DNA of 5,428 bases. It comes from a virus. Below, piece by piece: positions 222-5,428 of the stretch. Each line of letters opens with the position of its first letter. Positions within the stretch are counted from its first letter, which is position 1. The stretch lies in UHGV virus genome UHGV-0829476; one strand, given 5' to 3'. The position numbers and the translations under genes were made by a program. The notes under the pieces are model-generated. The model had not been told where the DNA came from and did no database searches. It was given only the letters and a program-made list of their open reading frames with translations.

Positions 222-1916
222 ATGAGACGCTCAAAACACAATTTAGGCTACACACACCTAACAACCATGGAAATGGGAAAGCTCGTGCCATTCATGTGGC
301 AAGATTGCCTACCAAACGACAGCCACTTCATCAGTTGCCAAGCAGTATTTAAGGCGCAGCCTATGATAGCGCCGATAATGCAAAAAATCCATCTCACGCT
401 ACAATACTACTTCGTGCCGTATCGCTTGCTGTGGGAAAACTGGGTAGAGTTTATCACAGGCGGAGAAAGCGGAGAAGCAACGCCGGAATTTCCCATAATG
501 AAAGCACCAGCAGGAGAAGGTATTAAACCTAACACACTCTTCGACTATTTCGGGCTACCAAACGGAAAACCTAATATAGAATTTAGTGCTATGCTCGCGC
601 GCGCATATACGAAAATTTGGAATGACCACTACAAAATCGATGATATAGAAACAGAATACCCGCTAAGCTTAGCTGATGGACTAGACACTGACACTAACAC
701 GGAGCTACTGAACTGCCACTGGGCAAGAGACCGCTTTACAAAAGCAAAACCATTTACACAAAGGGGCGCGCAGGTATCAGTGCCTATACAGCCTGCCATC
801 GTGGATAATTACGCCTACGGGCTTTATCTCATAAACATAACGCAAACGGGAGAAAGCACTAAAACAAAGCCTGCAAATGCCAATATCATCGGTAAAGCCT
901 ACGGACAAGACACGGTAACCAATTTCACTATTGAAAATCCAATAGCAGAAAATAATAACTATATTGATTTCAACTTTTACAGCCCAGCAAGTAGTGGAGA
1001 ACAATATGTCCATTATTACATACCCGTAAATGCTTCAAAAGGCGAAATATTAGGATATGAGAACTCACAAACGACAACCTTAATAAGCGAAAGCCACAAA
1101 ACTGAAGGACAAAAAATTACAAATTTAACAGCACAAGTCAAAACAACAACAATTCAAAAAATAAGCACGGGTAGAATCGGCTCTTTGAATATAAGAGACC
1201 TACGCATAAGCTCCGCACTACAACGCTACCAAGAAAAGAGCTTAAAAGTGGGCGCGGAATATGAGGATTTTTGCAAAAGCGAATTTGGCACTTATATAAG
1301 AGACAGTCGACTACAAAAAAGCGAATGGTTAGGCGGCTCTCAAAGTGTGTTACAAATAAGTGAGGTCATACAAAGCACAGACACAACAAGCCTACCGTTA
1401 GGAGCAACAGCGGGTTATGGTGTAGGACAACAAAGACAGCGCACGATTTATTATCGTTGCCCCGAACACGGCGTTATTATAGGGCTTGCGAGCATAAGAC
1501 CAGAAACACTTTACACGCAAGGCATAGACCGCGAGCTTCTAAAACGAAACCGCTTTGACTACTTCACGCGCGAATTTGTGGGTATAGGCGCGCAAGAAAT
1601 ACTAGAACAAGAGCTTTACGCAGATGAAACCAACAAAGAAAAAATCTTTGGCTATGATTTGCGCGGAAATTATAGAGAGTATTACGAACGCGCAAGCAAA
1701 ATCACAGGCAATTTTAGAACTGACTTAAATTTTTGGCATATGGGGCGTTTCTTTGAAAATGCACCTGTGCTAAATTCAAGCTTTATAAAGATGAATCCAA
1801 GAAAAGACGGCTTTGCTATACAAGATGATACACTACCAGCATTTCTATGCCACTTTCAAAATTTCATCTCATCGCGCAGACCGATACCGCGAAAAGTGCG
1901 AAATATCTTAAAATAA
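222..1916 (+). CDS. VP1: Major capsid protein VP1 (Microviridae F-like jelly-roll capsid protein, gokushovirus type), 564 aa
   Basis: RBS AAGGA at 211-215, 6 nt before ATG 222. N-terminal signature of gokushovirus VP1: G.L.P....(D/E)(V/C)LP.D.F......R..(T/A)P..P.M......FFVP.RL.W.NW..F, seen here as LVPFMWQDCLPNDSHF...YYFVPYRLLWENWVEF. Also DYFGLP, and further in LRISSALQRYQEKSLKVGAEYEDF matching the conserved LR.A..LQ.....ARxG.RY.E block. Length typical for gokusho-type VP1. The low-complexity N/T/I-rich middle (about aa 190-330) fits the variable surface insertion loop. Confidence 0.92.
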   Translation: MRRSKHNLGYTHLTTMEMGKLVPFMWQDCLPNDSHFISCQAVFKAQPMIAPIMQKIHLTLQYYFVPYRLLWENWVEFITGGESGEATPEFPIMKAPAGEGIKPNTLFDYFGLPNGKPNIEFSAMLARAYTKIWNDHYKIDDIETEYPLSLADGLDTDTNTELLNCHWARDRFTKAKPFTQRGAQVSVPIQPAIVDNYAYGLYLINITQTGESTKTKPANANIIGKAYGQDTVTNFTIENPIAENNNYIDFNFYSPASSGEQYVHYYIPVNASKGEILGYENSQTTTLISESHKTEGQKITNLTAQVKTTTIQKISTGRIGSLNIRDLRISSALQRYQEKSLKVGAEYEDFCKSEFGTYIRDSRLQKSEWLGGSQSVLQISEVIQSTDTTSLPLGATAGYGVGQQRQRTIYYRCPEHGVIIGLASIRPETLYTQGIDRELLKRNRFDYFTREFVGIGAQEILEQELYADETNKEKIFGYDLRGNYREYYERASKITGNFRTDLNFWHMGRFFENAPVLNSSFIKMNPRKDGFAIQDDTLPAFLCHFQNFISSRRPIPRKVRNILK

Positions 1917-1925
1917 GGAGACACT

Positions 1926-2354
1926 ATGGCAAATTTAAGTTTAATTGCGAAAATGCAGAACGCGCAGAAAAAGAAAATCAACGCTGAAAAGCTCGACTAT
2001 ACGCCTTTGGCGATACTAACACCACTAACACGAAAACCTGACACACTCGCACACGCGATCGAAAGAGTGTTAGGGCATTCGATGGAACAAGAAGCATACG
2101 AAACCTTAAGAGGCTGGGAATATGACGAACTTGATGAAAGTGATAGCGACTTTGCTGAAACTGATTTTAATGCTGATACCGACACTGACGCAGGACACTT
2201 CGCAGACCAAAAAATCACCAAAGCAGAACGAGACGCAGGAATAGTGAGAAAAGCAAAATTTGTTACCCCCGAAACCAGCAACGCACAGGCGAATGCACCG
2301 CTAGAGGGAGTAGGGGAGGACGAACCACAACTACCATTCGAGGAAAAAGAATGA
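1926..2354 (+). CDS. Hypothetical acidic protein, 142 aa; possibly an internal scaffolding (VP3-like) protein; a DNA-mimic role cannot be excluded
   Basis: Strong RBS AAGGAG at 1915-1920 overlapping the VP1 stop, 5 nt spacing to ATG 1926. The C-terminal half is strongly acidic (DELDESDSDFAETDFNADTDTDAGHFADQ). Stop TGA overlaps the next ATG (ATGA at 2351-2354), indicating translational coupling. Size and charge resemble Microviridae scaffolding proteins, but there are no diagnostic motifs. Confidence 0.75.
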   Translation: MANLSLIAKMQNAQKKKINAEKLDYTPLAILTPLTRKPDTLAHAIERVLGHSMEQEAYETLRGWEYDELDESDSDFAETDFNADTDTDAGHFADQKITKAERDAGIVRKAKFVTPETSNAQANAPLEGVGEDEPQLPFEEKE

Positions 2355-2545
2355 TACTTTGGAATTTAGACTATGACACTTGGCGCAAACTGTGGAGAAC
2401 TTATAAAGTTAAACCCTATGAAATGACTGGAGACCACGAATTCACCGAAGCAGTTATAAGAAGCTGCAAAACAGATGAGGAATTATTTCATAAATTTCAA
2501 TGGGAAACCATAGATGAAACATTTACAGAAAGGAGGAAAAAATGA
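2351..2545 (+). CDS. Hypothetical protein, 64 aa, translationally coupled between the 142-aa and 31-aa ORFs
   Basis: GAGGA at 2340-2344, 6 nt before ATG 2351. ATGA overlaps at both ends (2351-2354 and 2542-2545). Mixed-charge, W-rich sequence. No recognisable motif; possibly a VP5/protein C-like small replication or packaging factor. Confidence 0.6.
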   Translation: MILWNLDYDTWRKLWRTYKVKPYEMTGDHEFTEAVIRSCKTDEELFHKFQWETIDETFTERRKK

Positions 2546-2637
2546 ATCAAAGCACAAAAGAACGAATCAGTCTTTGGATTACCGCAATATGTGGAGCCAT
2601 AGGCACACTGTGGGAAATGATAAAAAATTTGATTTAA
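2542..2637 (+). CDS. Small 31-aa peptide with a single predicted transmembrane helix (MNQSTKERISLWITAICGAIGTLWEMIKNLI); candidate single-gene lysis or membrane-targeting peptide; below the ORF-track size cut-off
   Basis: Consensus RBS AGGAGG at 2531-2536, 5 nt before ATG 2542, which overlaps the TGA of the 64-aa ORF (ATGA). A hydrophobic core of about 17 residues (SLWITAICGAIGTLW) is flanked by charged residues. Stop TAA 2635-2637 sits inside the recurring ATTTAAGGTTT motif. Confidence 0.5.
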   Translation: MNQSTKERISLWITAICGAIGTLWEMIKNLI

Positions 2638-2642
2638 GGTTT
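2633..2642 (+). promoter_or_regulatory. Third copy of the TTTAAGGTTT motif, overlapping the stop codon of the 31-aa ORF; same arrangement as at 136-145 over the rep stop
   Basis: Exact 10-mer TTTAAGGTTT at 136-145, 147-156 and 2633-2642. The 12-mers cATTTAAGGTTTc and gATTTAAGGTTTg both embed the TAA of the upstream gene. Further TTTAAGG and CTTTAAGGA copies at 207-215 and 2712-2720, all intergenic. Confidence 0.4.
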
Positions 2643-2661
2643 GAAAAGTCAAATTTTAGAT

Positions 2662-2690
2662 TTGTTGTAACCTGGCGTTATATATAGACA
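2662..2690 (+). promoter_or_regulatory. Possible promoter for the 181aa-VP2-J-rep gene block (TTGTTG/TTGTAA -35-like at 2662-2670 and TATATA at 2681-2686); weak assignment
   Basis: AT-rich segment of the long intergenic region with TTG..., about 17 nt, then TTATATATAG. Followed by AAACTTTAA(A/G)G motifs as in the VP1 upstream region. Spacing to a canonical -35 is imperfect. Confidence 0.25.
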
Positions 2691-2815
2691 AGGGAAACTT
2701 TAAATTTAACGCTTTAAGGAACAATTAAGAAAACTTTAAGAAAACCAAACCAGACCAACCGAGCAAGAGCCGCGAAACTCCGTTTCATAAAGCGTTCTTG
2801 CGACGATGAATCGGT

Positions 2816-2911
2816 GTGAGACACTGCGCGCCGTCGTGGCGCGCTGTCTCACTCTTAACGCGCGGAATGTGCATCCTTACACCGCGCGACAATGCGGGCT
2901 GACCGCATTGT
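2816..2911. other. Cluster of three contiguous GC-rich stem-loops in the long intergenic region; putative ssDNA structural element such as a complementary-strand (minus-strand) origin, primosome assembly site or packaging signal
   Basis: Hairpin 1 (2816-2852): GTGAGACA-ct-GCGCGCC / loop GTCGT / GGCGCGC-TGTCTCAC, 15 bp with a 2-nt bulge. Hairpin 2 (2859-2888): CGCGCGG / 16-nt loop / CCGCGCG, 7 bp. Hairpin 3 (2889-2911): ACAATGCGG / loop GCTGA / CCGCATTGT, 9 bp. Local GC is far above the roughly 40% genome background. None is followed by a T-run, so they are not classic intrinsic terminators. Confidence 0.6.
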
Positions 2912-2924
2912 AGAAAGGCATTGA

Positions 2925-3470
2925 ATGATTGCAGCAGCATTACAATACGCAGCGCGTAGAATTTTACTAGGGGGTTCATCTTCAAATAGGCGTATGAGAA
3001 ACAAAGCTTCAAATGATACGCCAAAGAAATATGAGCTTACTCACAATATAAAGCGCGCAGTATTTGACGACCCAAGATTACAGTTCCAAGAGGATATCCG
3101 CGTAGATTTGGCTCGACATTTTGATAAACTCAAAAGACGCGAAAACAACAAATTATGGCGAAAAAGGTATAGTATAACAAGAAAAGAATATGACAAAGAA
3201 ATTTTAAAAAAACGAGAATCTCAAAAAGACAAATTAGACAAGCTAATAGATAAAATACCCTCCGTGCCCTTTTTAACTTCAAAAACAAAAAGAACACTAA
3301 TTCAGTATAAGAAAGATTTTGATATAATCACAGGAAAAAGAAAAATATGCGAACAACGCGAAATGACAAGAGCCGAAATTATGAGAATGACAGGCGGAAA
3401 AGGCCTATCAATAAAATTCGCAAACAAGGGACTTCTAAGAAGTATCATTTGTAAAAAGAAAAGGAGATAA
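2925..3470 (+). CDS. Hypothetical highly basic protein, 181 aa (K+R about 30%), with predicted coiled-coil and nucleic-acid-binding character
   Basis: AAAGG at 2915-2919 upstream of ATG 2925; an alternative start is ATG 2994. The long ORF is improbable by chance in AT-rich DNA. K/R-rich throughout (KRRENNKLWRKRY, KEILKKRESQKDKLDKLIDK, CKKKRR*). Its stop lies 1 nt before the VP2 ATG, and the VP2 RBS is embedded in its last codons, indicating coupling. No homology to the canonical Microviridae proteins is recognisable by eye. Confidence 0.6.
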   Translation: MIAAALQYAARRILLGGSSSNRRMRNKASNDTPKKYELTHNIKRAVFDDPRLQFQEDIRVDLARHFDKLKRRENNKLWRKRYSITRKEYDKEILKKRESQKDKLDKLIDKIPSVPFLTSKTKRTLIQYKKDFDIITGKRKICEQREMTRAEIMRMTGGKGLSIKFANKGLLRSIICKKKRR

Positions 3471-3471
3471 G

Positions 3472-4350
3472 ATGCCTTTAGTAGCAGGTGCAATACTGGC
3501 GAGTGGTTTAGCAAATATATACGCTAATCAACAAAACAATGAAACAAATTGGGCAAGACAGCAACAAATAAACAAGCTCAACTATCAAGCTCAAAAAGAA
3601 TTCGCCCAAAATTCAATTCAGTGGAGAAAGCAAGACGCTTTGCGTGCTGGCATAAATCCTATTTATGCGCTCAATGCCTACGGCGCAAATTTTAGCCCTA
3701 GCTTCCAAGCAACAGGTAATAATCCAAACGATTATTCATTTTTAGGACAAAGCGCAGTTCAGGCAGTTAGCGCATATCAGCAAACGCAACAGGCAAAAGC
3801 CGACAAAGCAAGCGTTGCGCTAATAAAACAACAAACCGCCACAGAACAGGCACGAGAGCTAGAAAGCACGGCTCGCGCAAGCCTTATGATAAGTCAAGCC
3901 GACCAAATCGCAAATTCCGCGACCAAAACACAACAAAAAGTAAATATATCTGCAAACTCTATCCAAAGCACGCAAAATTTAGCAAACGAAATGAAAAAAG
4001 TTTTCGGCTCATATGACATTCAAACAATAGGTACAGGCAGAATTTCAGTAACTGAAAACAAATCGCGCACAGCTCAACAAAGCAGCGACAGCGAAATTAT
4101 GTCGCATATAAACGAATTAAACACACATAGAAACCGCAAACAAGCCATAAAAGAGCAACTCGAATTTTTAGGAAAAAAAACGGGCTATGTATGGAAAGAA
4201 ATCGACGCGGGACTATCGACTTACGATTTTGTAAAAACAAACCAAAAATACCGCACAGCAACACAAAAAAAAGCCGATTTTGAAAGAGCGATGAAAGAAA
4301 GCGACAGACTTTATAAAGAACACATAGAAAAATACGGAAGATATGACTAA
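3472..4350 (+). CDS. VP2: Minor capsid / DNA pilot protein VP2 (gokushovirus VP2, functional analogue of phiX174 H), 292 aa
   Basis: RBS AAGGAG at 3461-3466, 5 nt before ATG 3472. Hydrophobic N-terminus (MPLVAGAILASGLANIYA). The Q/N-rich segment and the RKQDALRAGINPIYALNAY block match the conserved gokushovirus VP2 motif (....AGLNP.LA). The C-terminal two-thirds is a Q/A/S/T-rich low-complexity, coiled-coil-like region typical of pilot proteins. Confidence 0.85.
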   Translation: MPLVAGAILASGLANIYANQQNNETNWARQQQINKLNYQAQKEFAQNSIQWRKQDALRAGINPIYALNAYGANFSPSFQATGNNPNDYSFLGQSAVQAVSAYQQTQQAKADKASVALIKQQTATEQARELESTARASLMISQADQIANSATKTQQKVNISANSIQSTQNLANEMKKVFGSYDIQTIGTGRISVTENKSRTAQQSSDSEIMSHINELNTHRNRKQAIKEQLEFLGKKTGYVWKEIDAGLSTYDFVKTNQKYRTATQKKADFERAMKESDRLYKEHIEKYGRYD

Positions 4351-4379
4351 ATCTAAATCTAAGAAAGGAGGAAAGCCTT

Positions 4380-4448
4380 ATGCGATGGTATCACACAAGA
4401 CGCAGACGCGCGCGCGCATTAAGACGAAGACGAAGACGAAGACGATAA
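4380..4448 (+). CDS. Tiny arginine-rich peptide, 22 aa (MRWYHTRRRRARALRRRRRRRR); putative DNA-binding/packaging protein analogous to phiX174 J and gokushovirus ORF8; not in the ORF track
   Basis: Consensus RBS AAAGGAGG at 4364-4371, 8 nt before ATG 4380. 15 of 22 residues are Arg. Located between VP2 and rep. Ends TAA 4446-4448. Confidence 0.6.
   Translation: MRWYHTRRRRARALRRRRRRRR
4422..4445 (+). repeat. Perfect tandem hexamer repeat (AGACGA)x4 encoding the poly-Arg tail of the J-like peptide
   Basis: agacgaagacgaagacgaagacga read directly from the sequence. Frame 3 gives RRRRRRRR; frame 1 gives DEDEDED. Confidence 0.9.
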
Positions 4449-4476
4449 ATTACTTCGCAAGGCTAATTTTAAAAAA

Positions 4477-5428
4477 ATGCCAACAATGCTAACACCAAAG
4501 GGGCATATCGCCTGCCCCGCTGAATTCTCATCTTTCAAATGTCAAAATCCTTACATAATGCGCTTTCAAGCAGGCGAAATGGACACAGGAACACCAAAAT
4601 ACAAAGCATTTCCGTGTAATAAGTGTATATTTTGTAAAAAGCGAAAGCAAAAGCAATGGACTACACGCCTATCATTAGAATGTGAGGCACACGAACATAA
4701 CAGCTTCGTAACACTCACTTATAAAGAGTATGACCCTTTTGTAGAAAGCGAACTATTTGTAAAATCACGCTCACTAGACTACACAGACATACAGAAATTT
4801 CATAAACACCTCAAAATGAATGTCAAAAGGCAAGGAGACGAAACTTATAAGCACTTCAACGCTGGCGAATATGGAGAAATCAACACACAACGCGCGCACT
4901 GGCACTTGATACTTTTTGGCTTTGCAGACACTGAAAGAAATCGCGAAAATATCTTTAAAATTTGGAAACATAGCGATTTGAAAGAAAGAGTTATCGAGGA
5001 GATAATCGATACAAAAGCCGTAGGTAAGTATGTCTCAAAATATGTGCTTAAAAACATAAATTTAAGCCCTACGGAATACGAAAGAATCCACAAACAAACC
5101 AGACCACTACATCACGGCTCGACAGGACTCGGCTGGAAAACGGCAAAAGCTAAATTTTTACAACCTGCATTAGAGAGCTTTAAAGAATTTGGCGACTTCA
5201 ACCATATAATCTATGACGGCAAAAAAGTATTCCTAGACCGATATTTAACGCACAAATTAGCCTTGCACTTAGGCGAAATTTTAGAATGCGGCCAGGGAAT
5301 TAAAAACGCTATTACGCACAAAGGTTTAGAAGAATTAAAAGCATATATAGCTGAAACAAAAGAAATTTACAAGCTCTATGCACCCGATGAATTCAACGAT
5401 GAAACGATACCAGACTACAAATACTACA
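4477..5428 (+). CDS. VP4: Replication initiation protein VP4/Rep (HUH rolling-circle endonuclease, Microviridae protein A-like), 3'-partial; 317 codons in the window with no stop
   Basis: My own frame-1 translation from ATG 4477 has no stop to the window end: MPTMLTPKGHIACPAEFSSFKCQNPY...FPCNKCIFCKKRK...SFVTLTYKEYDPF...RAHWHLILFGF...AVGKYVSKYVLKN... This contains the N-terminal Cys cluster, RCR motif 1 (FVTLTY), the HUH motif (HWHLIL) and the catalytic tyrosine motif (YVSKYV), the classic Microviridae Rep triad. Absent from the ORF track only because there is no in-window stop. Confidence 0.9.
   Translation, partial: MPTMLTPKGHIACPAEFSSFKCQNPYIMRFQAGEMDTGTPKYKAFPCNKCIFCKKRKQKQWTTRLSLECEAHEHNSFVTLTYKEYDPFVESELFVKSRSLDYTDIQKFHKHLKMNVKRQGDETYKHFNAGEYGEINTQRAHWHLILFGFADTERNRENIFKIWKHSDLKERVIEEIIDTKAVGKYVSKYVLKNINLSPTEYERIHKQTRPLHHGSTGLGWKTAKAKFLQPALESFKEFGDFNHIIYDGKKVFLDRYLTHKLALHLGEILECGQGIKNAITHKGLEELKAYIAETKEIYKLYAPDEFNDETIPDYKYY

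Follow-up and report, generated by a model that had tools for sequence, protein, structure and literature searches.

We analysed the 5,428-nucleotide (nt) stretch UHGV-0829476, a complete circular microvirus genome (hereafter the window) identical in sequence to the Logan contig ERR975022_7, and found that its open reading frame (ORF) at 2542-2637, encoding the 31-amino-acid (aa) peptide MNQSTKERISLWITAICGAIGTLWEMIKNLI, is, judged from its conservation, a genuine protein-coding gene that gene callers missed. Sequence comparison places the product in a family of 28-32-residue peptides of an animal-associated, non-phiX174-like microvirus lineage. The gene content of these phages makes the peptide a candidate lysis effector, or an essential part of one, a role that we propose tentatively and hold to be possible but short of probable. 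Microviruses are among the most abundant phages of animal and human guts. Lysis by those outside the phiX174 group is an acknowledged gap (PMC7062461; PMC9239249). Whatever the function, the analysis exposes a systematic annotation error, in which the peptide gene is skipped or an overlapping wrong frame is called, and the outcome is a peptide family with clear boundaries, natural variants and a named competing candidate in the same genome.

The ORF runs from ATG (2542-2544) to TAA (2635-2637) on the + strand, which carries all window genes. As described in a first-pass annotation made from the DNA letters, the ATG follows a Shine-Dalgarno (SD) sequence, AGGAGG, at a 5-nt spacing and overlaps the TGA of the upstream 64-aa gene (2351-2545) as ATGA. 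The same annotation called this ribosome-binding site the strongest in the genome; the hexamer and its spacing stand but the uniqueness does not, since AGGAGG is present twice on the + strand (2531 and 4366, the second copy serving an Arg-rich ORF at 4380) and the claim is reduced to a tie. Likewise, the ATGA coupling is present in the window but is not kept among relatives, in which only the SD and ATG are constant and not the junction with the upstream gene. ORF length and SD alone are not significant, because the window holds 85 ORFs of at least 20 aa and two copies of AGGAGG are within the shuffled expectation (mean 1.07; 54 of 200 shuffles reach 2). What raises this ORF above chance is that 12 distinct coding sequences conserve it in a frame-specific manner. 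The SD is predicted to be unpaired in the minimum-energy RNA fold of the peptide gene region, and SD sequestration as an expression brake was rejected on this ground.

Relatives (contigs and records with L numbers below) were gathered by searching with the 64-aa upstream protein, which starts with MILW and is referred to here by these letters, and with the major capsid protein VP1, followed by retrieval of their contigs; further relatives came from metagenome contigs scanned with the peptide alignment. A homologous ORF of 28-32 codons was detected in the 12 distinct coding sequences, with the ATG behind AAAGGAG(G) at a spacing of 4-7 nt in all 12. Among the remoter homologs AAAGGAG(G) is kept in L027, L041 and L042, and L040 has AAAGGA only. 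Loss of the ORF in relatives had been proposed as the observation that would count against the gene; in every clade relative examined the ORF is intact, SD-preceded and under purifying selection. Over 25 alignable codons the variable sites are distributed 16/8/23 over codon positions 1/2/3, and the summed ratio of nonsynonymous to synonymous divergence (pN/pS) is 0.28 in the peptide frame versus 1.0 and 3.4 in the other two frames, the true value for the peptide frame being below 0.28 because synonymous sites are close to saturation. Of 96 nt, 14 differ between L018 and L011 and leave the peptide unchanged; the 9 nt that distinguish the window from L014 bring a single Ile-to-Val change.

It is very improbable that the ORF is untranslated, with a nucleotide-level element conserved in its place or with the overlapping 57-aa frame as the real gene. 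Such an explanation could draw on the high nucleotide-level conservation of the neighbouring intergenic region, and on gene calling, in which the other frame is chosen for L014 and L018 and forms part of a fusion in L011. However, the variation falls on third positions of the peptide frame (the L018/L011 differences are all silent), both other frames are interrupted by stops at varying positions among relatives, and the SD, start and stop are retained where the gene has moved elsewhere in the genome. A known RNA element in place of the gene was rejected, with no Rfam match at E <= 1 and a fold z of -1.65, which is not significantly stable.

The overlapping frame (2514-2687 in the window) was ruled out as a gene by stops at differing places in L023, L018 and L011 and by the absence of purifying selection (pN/pS 3.4); these stops, together with the third-position variation and low pN/pS of the peptide frame, mark the 57-58-aa ORF as an artefact. 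Nevertheless, it is called as a 58-aa gene in L014 (2599-2775) and L018 (3094-3270), and in L011 (4797-5054) as the 85-aa protein P0002, fused to the upstream MILW gene. The true gene is masked in protein databases because public calls annotate this wrong frame over it, and the first-pass description of the peptide as unannotated is borne out: no gene with this product is on record.

The family falls into two subfamilies, the first including the window, L014/L028, L023, L018, L011 and L024, and the second MNKERIGLWIAALTGAINAIWELVKGLI and close variants (L026, L030-L035). Its signature is M-x(0-5)-K-[EA]-[RKQ]-[IVF]-x-L-W-[IVL]-[TA]-A-...-[ED]-x-x-K, and a local family hidden Markov model (HMM) sets the members (E <= 5e-15) apart from all else in 5,212 translated segments. 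A phmmer search with the peptide over 1.84 billion representatives returned a sole homolog, P0129 (E 3.5e-4). GenBank members, all labelled "hypothetical protein", are UPW41629.1 and UPW41842.1 (Peromfec viruses RodF8_37 and RodF5_12) and XHH67748.1 (bajarodmic virus 497; E = 4e-15 against the family HMM); they are of 29 aa, e.g., MKAQITLWVTAISAFIMSILDTLEKIGVL and MKERITLWLTAISAFLMSVVDLLAKVGIL, and both Peromfec copies have a AAAGGAGG-type SD and a single hydrophobic helix. The tblastn search of the window peptide against GenBank phages gave chance-level matches only, missing these members because their identity to the window peptide is too low. Two degenerate-DNA pattern scans of IMG/VR gave no match. 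With one genome scanned for each bacterial species, neither the peptide nor the MILW protein turned up, so the species representatives contain no prophage copy and no host homolog.

Peptide identity to the window copy is 58-97% (one weak candidate homolog left out). Where the peptide is 58-71% identical, VP1 is 52-58% and the scaffold-like, p181 and pilot proteins are 22-43% identical, while Rep is 28-32% identical in L024, L026 and L035 and 75% in L011. Thus, peptide conservation equals or exceeds that of the capsid protein and is far above that of the scaffold and pilot and, in three of five genomes, of Rep. The family extends to microviruses with a capsid protein only ~33-46% identical to that of the window; in one of them, L027 (VP1 46%), the member MNKERFGLWVTAIFAALQSLYEIFSKLF is placed between pilot and Rep. 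A called 58-aa ORF of L027 (4842-5018) has this copy (4932-5018), which possesses an AAAGGAGG and ATG to itself, as its C-terminal half, and its N-terminal half forms another helix, hydrophobic or amphipathic; the two halves may reflect dual starts that yield a long and a short product.

The position of the gene is variable, with three different locations in the genome. It is the final gene ahead of the large intergenic region in the window clade, where it overlaps MILW by 22-83 nt in L018, L011 and L023 and in L014 145 nt separate the two. The reverse order (peptide, then MILW) is seen in L032-L034, in L024 the peptide gene is downstream of an unrelated 62-aa gene, and in L024, L026, L031 and L035 MILW is absent or degenerate while the peptide is present. 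The order is pilot-peptide-Arg-rich ORF-Rep in the Peromfec viruses and Rep-peptide-VP1 in bajarodmic virus 497. Since it occurs on either side of MILW, after the 62-aa gene, and in the pilot-Rep and Rep-VP1 intervals, the gene is, as far as gene order tells, independent of its neighbours. Clear intrinsic terminators follow the peptide stop codon directly in L024 and L026.

These positions bear on a role in particle production, either as a membrane tether for replication or assembly or as a minor virion or DNA-delivery component, which we consider improbable. The strong SD is the same as that of the Arg-rich DNA-binding peptide gene, the peptide adjoins Arg-rich and pilot genes in the Peromfec viruses and L027, and its conservation is on a par with the capsid protein. 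However, the gene often lies well away from those for the pilot and DNA-binding proteins, the window being one example, the peptide is of membrane-type rather than basic composition, and we know of no microvirus virion component of this kind.

AlphaFold2 (single sequence) predicted one helix over residues 3-30 with a mean predicted local distance difference test (pLDDT) score of 90, and this, together with the composition, supports the proposed architecture of a small single-helix membrane peptide. The hydrophobic helix of about 17 residues proposed by the first-pass annotation holds as a single helix, but the uncharged stretch is of 16 residues (I9-W24) and only marginally hydrophobic, with a Kyte-Doolittle mean of 1.68, Eisenberg H 0.72 and muH 0.31. 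The summed Hessa scale is +0.55 over the 16-residue core and +2.5 over 19 residues through I27, compared to -3.4 for the phiX174 E segment. The helical wheel has a small/polar stripe, S10-T14-G18-G21/T22-E25-K28, on one face (Asn at the G21 position in subfamily ii), and K6, L11, W12, I13, A15, G18, A19, W24, E25 and K28 are invariant in a six-sequence alignment. We infer from this model that the product would be one continuous helix in the inner membrane, its 16-residue core flanked by Trp12 and Trp24, and that the conserved stripe face would pack against another helix, from its own copies or from a host protein.

The peptide had no significant match among PHROGs, Pfam, NCBIfam and PDB sequences; the best chance-level matches were DUF7511 (E 0.1), phenol-soluble modulin alpha (E 0.06, far under the cut-off) and YbbR (E 0.27). 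A lipoprotein signal (lipobox L-[AST]-[GAS]-C) was rejected: the -1 residue is Ile, and Cys17 is replaced by Thr in L018, L011, L024 and subfamily ii.

The premise that microviruses unlike phiX174 have no known lysis gene agrees with the literature: those outside the phiX174 group are without a peptidoglycan-synthesis inhibitor and only some carry acquired peptidases (PMC7062461; PMC9239249). No muralytic domain was detected on any window protein (Pfam, PHROGs), and a test for a holin-endolysin cassette found no muralytic Pfam or PHROG family on the window genes and none listed on the called genes of relatives, for which the precomputed Pfam families are Phage_F and Rep only. Capsid, scaffold, pilot, DNA-binding and replication functions each have a candidate gene. 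The single-gene lysis criteria of Chamakura et al. 2020 (PMC7693330) are at least 25 codons, a legitimate SD and a transmembrane domain (TMD) predicted by TMHMM. The peptide gene has 31 codons and AGGAGG 5 nt upstream; for the TMD, substitute measures were used, namely the 16 uncharged residues with the Kyte-Doolittle, Eisenberg and Hessa values above, which are borderline, and the single AlphaFold2 helix. Screening of relatives for ORFs of at least 20 aa with an SD and a hydrophobic stretch left the family ORF as the only candidate in L023, L018 and L011, and in nearly every genome it is the candidate with a full-strength SD. The tentative assignment as a lysis effector was made because a muralytic enzyme is missing, the other core functions are covered and the family ORF is the sole candidate in these three relatives.

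In the proposed mechanism, the peptide would be made in large amounts late in infection and would insert into the cytoplasmic membrane. It could then self-associate to form a lesion in the membrane, as holins or MS2 L do, and so trigger autolysis, or bind a membrane enzyme of the lipid II pathway, as LysM does on MurJ or E on MraY; both routes would go via sequence-specific helix-helix contacts, and wall failure would release the virions. A sequence conserved this tightly points to a specific partner more than to generic hydrophobicity, and the strong SD favours mass action over an inhibitor at catalytic level. Within the lysis reading, a mechanism via specific helix-helix contacts is favoured, and we lean to mass action, self-assembly or the triggering of autolysis.

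Several observations weigh against a lytic role, or against an E-type protein antibiotic in particular. The peptide has no similarity to phiX174 E or K and is not overprinted. Its hydrophobicity is marginal, and autonomous membrane insertion would be marginal since the segment is short and glycine/threonine-rich. Its SD belongs to the strongest class of the genome and is common to a structural DNA-binding peptide gene, and small-phage lysis genes are usually weakly expressed. The peptide is as conserved as the capsid protein, and such lysis genes evolve fast and are short-lived (PMC7693330). In an ssRNA-phage screen with the same criteria, 178 of 293 TMD-bearing candidates were without effect in E. 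coli (PMC7693330). The window also carries an E-like overprinted ORF (2122-2244), with reduced synonymous divergence of its host gene, which could be the real lysis gene of the subclade of the window. Finally, the precedent of phiX174 also offers K, which is small, hydrophobic and non-lytic.

Like phiX174 E, the peptide is a small membrane-helix protein of a microvirus without a holin-endolysin pair. E inhibits MraY, and E lysis depends on SlyD. Homology to E or K was rejected, as BLASTP gave no alignment of the peptide with either protein at E <= 100, and the E family (PF04517, Microvir_lysis) gave no Pfam hit at E <= 10. E is of 91 aa, whereas the peptide, at 31 aa, is without the C-terminal domain, and the E helix is much more hydrophobic (Kyte-Doolittle 2.79 vs 1.68). 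E is overprinted in the scaffold gene and weakly expressed, whereas the peptide has a separate gene with a strong SD and, again unlike E, is tightly conserved. The E-type layout (overprint in scaffold, N-terminal TMD and a basic cytoplasmic domain of ~55 aa) was not found for the peptide, whose gene is downstream of the scaffold-like and MILW genes. Locally, R-I-S-L-W-I-T of the peptide faintly resembles R-W-T-L-W-D-T of E. The Arg-Trp-x-x-Trp of E is cited as an MraY-contact motif (PMC11812184), and we take the possible likeness to R-W-x-x-W as a lead only.

The best functional analogy for a sequence-constrained helix of 31 residues is LysM (SglM, levivirus M), a 37-residue single-helix lysis protein acting on MurJ via a specific transmembrane helix-helix contact (PMC12506998). 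The phage encoding LysM is an ssRNA phage, unrelated to the microviruses, and LysM, a blocker of the lipid II flippase MurJ, is likened to the peptide by description. The peptide family is also kept over deep phage divergence, whereas ssRNA-phage lysis genes undergo rapid turnover (PMC7693330). With holins, pinholins and MS2 L the peptide shares a strong SD implying abundant synthesis, a stripe permitting self-association and short charged ends. It differs from holins in having no partner endolysin in the gene lists and no Pfam or PHROGs family match, and to our knowledge it is smaller than any known holin.

The overprinted ORF 2122-2244 is potentially the main competitor for the lysis function. 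It lies ~300 nt upstream of the peptide gene in the +1 frame of the scaffold-like gene and is preceded by a weak GAGG SD, and its product has a hydrophobic N-terminus, Pro as residue 20 and a basic tail, which is the layout of phiX174 E within D. In the four closest genomes, host-gene synonymous divergence is lower within the overlap than outside: pS of the window versus L014 is 0.11 inside and 0.38 outside, and L014 and L028 differ at 0 of 23 synonymous sites inside and 10 of 61 outside, in a test of ~41 codons with non-independent pairs. The ORF is hydrophobic in the window, L014, L028 and L023 only (partly in L025), and not in L018 and L011. Its start codon is imposed by a conserved Glu-Tyr-Asp motif of the scaffold frame, and a hydrophobic, Lys-rich +1 composition is the automatic product of an Asp/Glu-rich frame 0. 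Similar +1 ORFs were observed in L025 (2693-2845) and L036 (2095-2277).

Should lysis in the subclade be due to this ORF, the 31-aa product would be a K-like or exclusion-type accessory. We give somewhat less than an even chance to a real membrane peptide with a non-lytic accessory role, as a K counterpart, in superinfection exclusion or as a modulator of a host membrane protein (for instance a receptor or transporter, or the machinery for cell division or energy), lysis then coming from ORF 2122-2244 or from a protein without a TMD. The analogy behind this is phiX174 K, also a small hydrophobic accessory protein of a microvirus, which is non-lytic, non-essential and affects burst size; however, K is of 56 aa and overprinted on genes A and C, and the peptide has its own gene. 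High conservation with a very strong SD would suit an abundant partner-specific modulator over a timing-critical lysis factor, phiX174 has both E and K, and the E-like ORF sits at a site of depressed synonymous divergence, with counterparts in L025 and L036. Some functional single-gene lysis proteins are without a TMD (PMC7693330). On the other hand, L018 and L011 keep the peptide while their +1 ORF is not hydrophobic and they have no other ORF combining an SD with a hydrophobic stretch, and the composition and forced start of the +1 ORF, as well as the small size and non-independent pairs of the synonymous-rate test, count against the competing lysis gene.

A broader hypothesis, which we consider rather unlikely, is that the "KERI-x-LW" peptides are the missing lysis effectors of a broad non-phiX174-like lineage, probably including Campylobacterales phages, and act as ~30-residue, sequence-constrained transmembrane "protein antibiotics" by binding to a specific enzyme of the inner membrane that takes part in cell-wall precursor supply. 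If true, they would be the shortest conserved DNA-phage lysis proteins known, encoded by a small mobile cassette relocating within microvirus genomes. Lysis through a specific target would additionally point to a new vulnerable site in host envelope biogenesis, the hosts possibly being Campylobacter or Helicobacter relatives.

Small hydrophobic SD-preceded ORFs without annotation also occur in remoter relatives (24-30 aa), at best marginal to the family HMM. These include MLEYLFLMAFFCAFAVGAFALTWH of bajarodmic virus 462, the 26-30-aa-type peptide MNLKEKITLYLTMIASMLTFISQSIIPSLP of L025 and, in chicken and pig microviruses, MKEKVIMWLGWIVAACEAVVNFLGTV and variants (MKEKVIMWLGW...) of 26-28 aa between pilot and Rep, at 3540-3620 in L036 (MN379650.1), 4498-4584 in L038 (MG945798.1) and 1740-1826 in L039 (MT135350.1), and also in MN379643.1 and MT135457.1 (five GenBank records in all). 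With E of 0.02-0.09 against the family HMM in a small database, the L025 and chicken/pig peptides are marginal and are treated as positional and architectural analogues rather than proven homologs. Of seven GenBank microvirus records lacking a clear member, the six that were opened (all but MT135457.1) have such ORFs without annotation. A second, very hydrophobic small-ORF type, also without annotation, is represented by MLEYLFLMAFFCAFAVGAFALTWH in bajarodmic virus 462 (L037, PQ006610.1; 2357-2431) and MLEFIIVFAFLSICALFAYHYYKFWKEVIINE in L026 (4805-4903), the latter directly upstream of and overlapping the peptide gene.

Table 1. Features of the window discussed in the text (positions in nt).
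Feature	Position	Strand	Remark
Major capsid protein VP1	222-1916	+	PHROG 514, E 3.5e-122
Acidic scaffold-like protein	1926-2354	+	142 aa
Overprinted ORF	2122-2244	+	40 aa; +1 frame of scaffold-like gene; MTNLMKVIATLLKLILMLIPTLTQDTSQTKKSPKQNETQE
MILW gene	2351-2545	+	64 aa; stop overlaps peptide start (ATGA)
Overlapping ORF	2514-2687	+	57 aa; other frame; judged not a gene
Shine-Dalgarno AGGAGG	2531-2536	+	5-nt spacer to ATG
Peptide ORF	2542-2637	+	31 aa
Uncharged membrane-type segment	2566-2613	+	ISLWITAICGAIGTLW; codons 9-24, 16 residues
Intergenic region	2638-2924		287 nt
Basic protein (p181)	2925-3470	+	181 aa
DNA pilot protein	3472-4350	+	
Arg-rich ORF	4380-4448	+	22 aa; MRWYHTRRRRARALRRRRRRRR
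Rep	4477 onwards, wraps to 139	+	363 aa

A DNA-level search of GenBank phages with the window found no close relative, and the best GenBank VP1 matches are ~40% identical over the full length (Table 1 gives the gene map). Scans of the window for consensus promoters and terminators gave nothing beyond the shuffled expectation. The intergenic region downstream of the peptide gene is nearly identical in L014 and L023, exceeding the conservation of neighbouring coding third positions, and contains GC-rich hairpins (2816-2852 and 2889-2911) as well as a promoter-like, AT-rich stretch (TTGTTGTAACC...TATA); this region had no Rfam match and could be an origin, promoter or packaging element.

The Arg-rich 22-aa ORF is probably a J/VP8-like DNA-binding peptide, because its start, M-[RK]-W-[YF]-H-T-R, is kept in L014, L023, L018 and L011. 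Most of these four genomes also keep open a Lys/Thr-rich ORF that lies in another frame (4343-4492). L011 and L018 are strongly mosaic relative to the window: in L011, Rep is 75%, pilot 31% and scaffold 43% identical, and L011 and L018 have MILW 69-77% and the peptide 71% identical in both, which suggests module exchange among these microviruses.

The MILW protein is 72% identical to P0006, a protein encoded on non-viral contigs (L019-L022; 1020-1211 in L019) that also encode a topoisomerase and a relaxase. As these contigs match Campylobacter and Helicobacter plasmids at ~75-77% DNA identity, the similarity suggests a host in the Campylobacterales and a MILW gene common to the microvirus and a plasmid-like element. 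Microviruses have been reported as genetically isolated (PMC9239249), and the sharing of MILW is unusual against that background.

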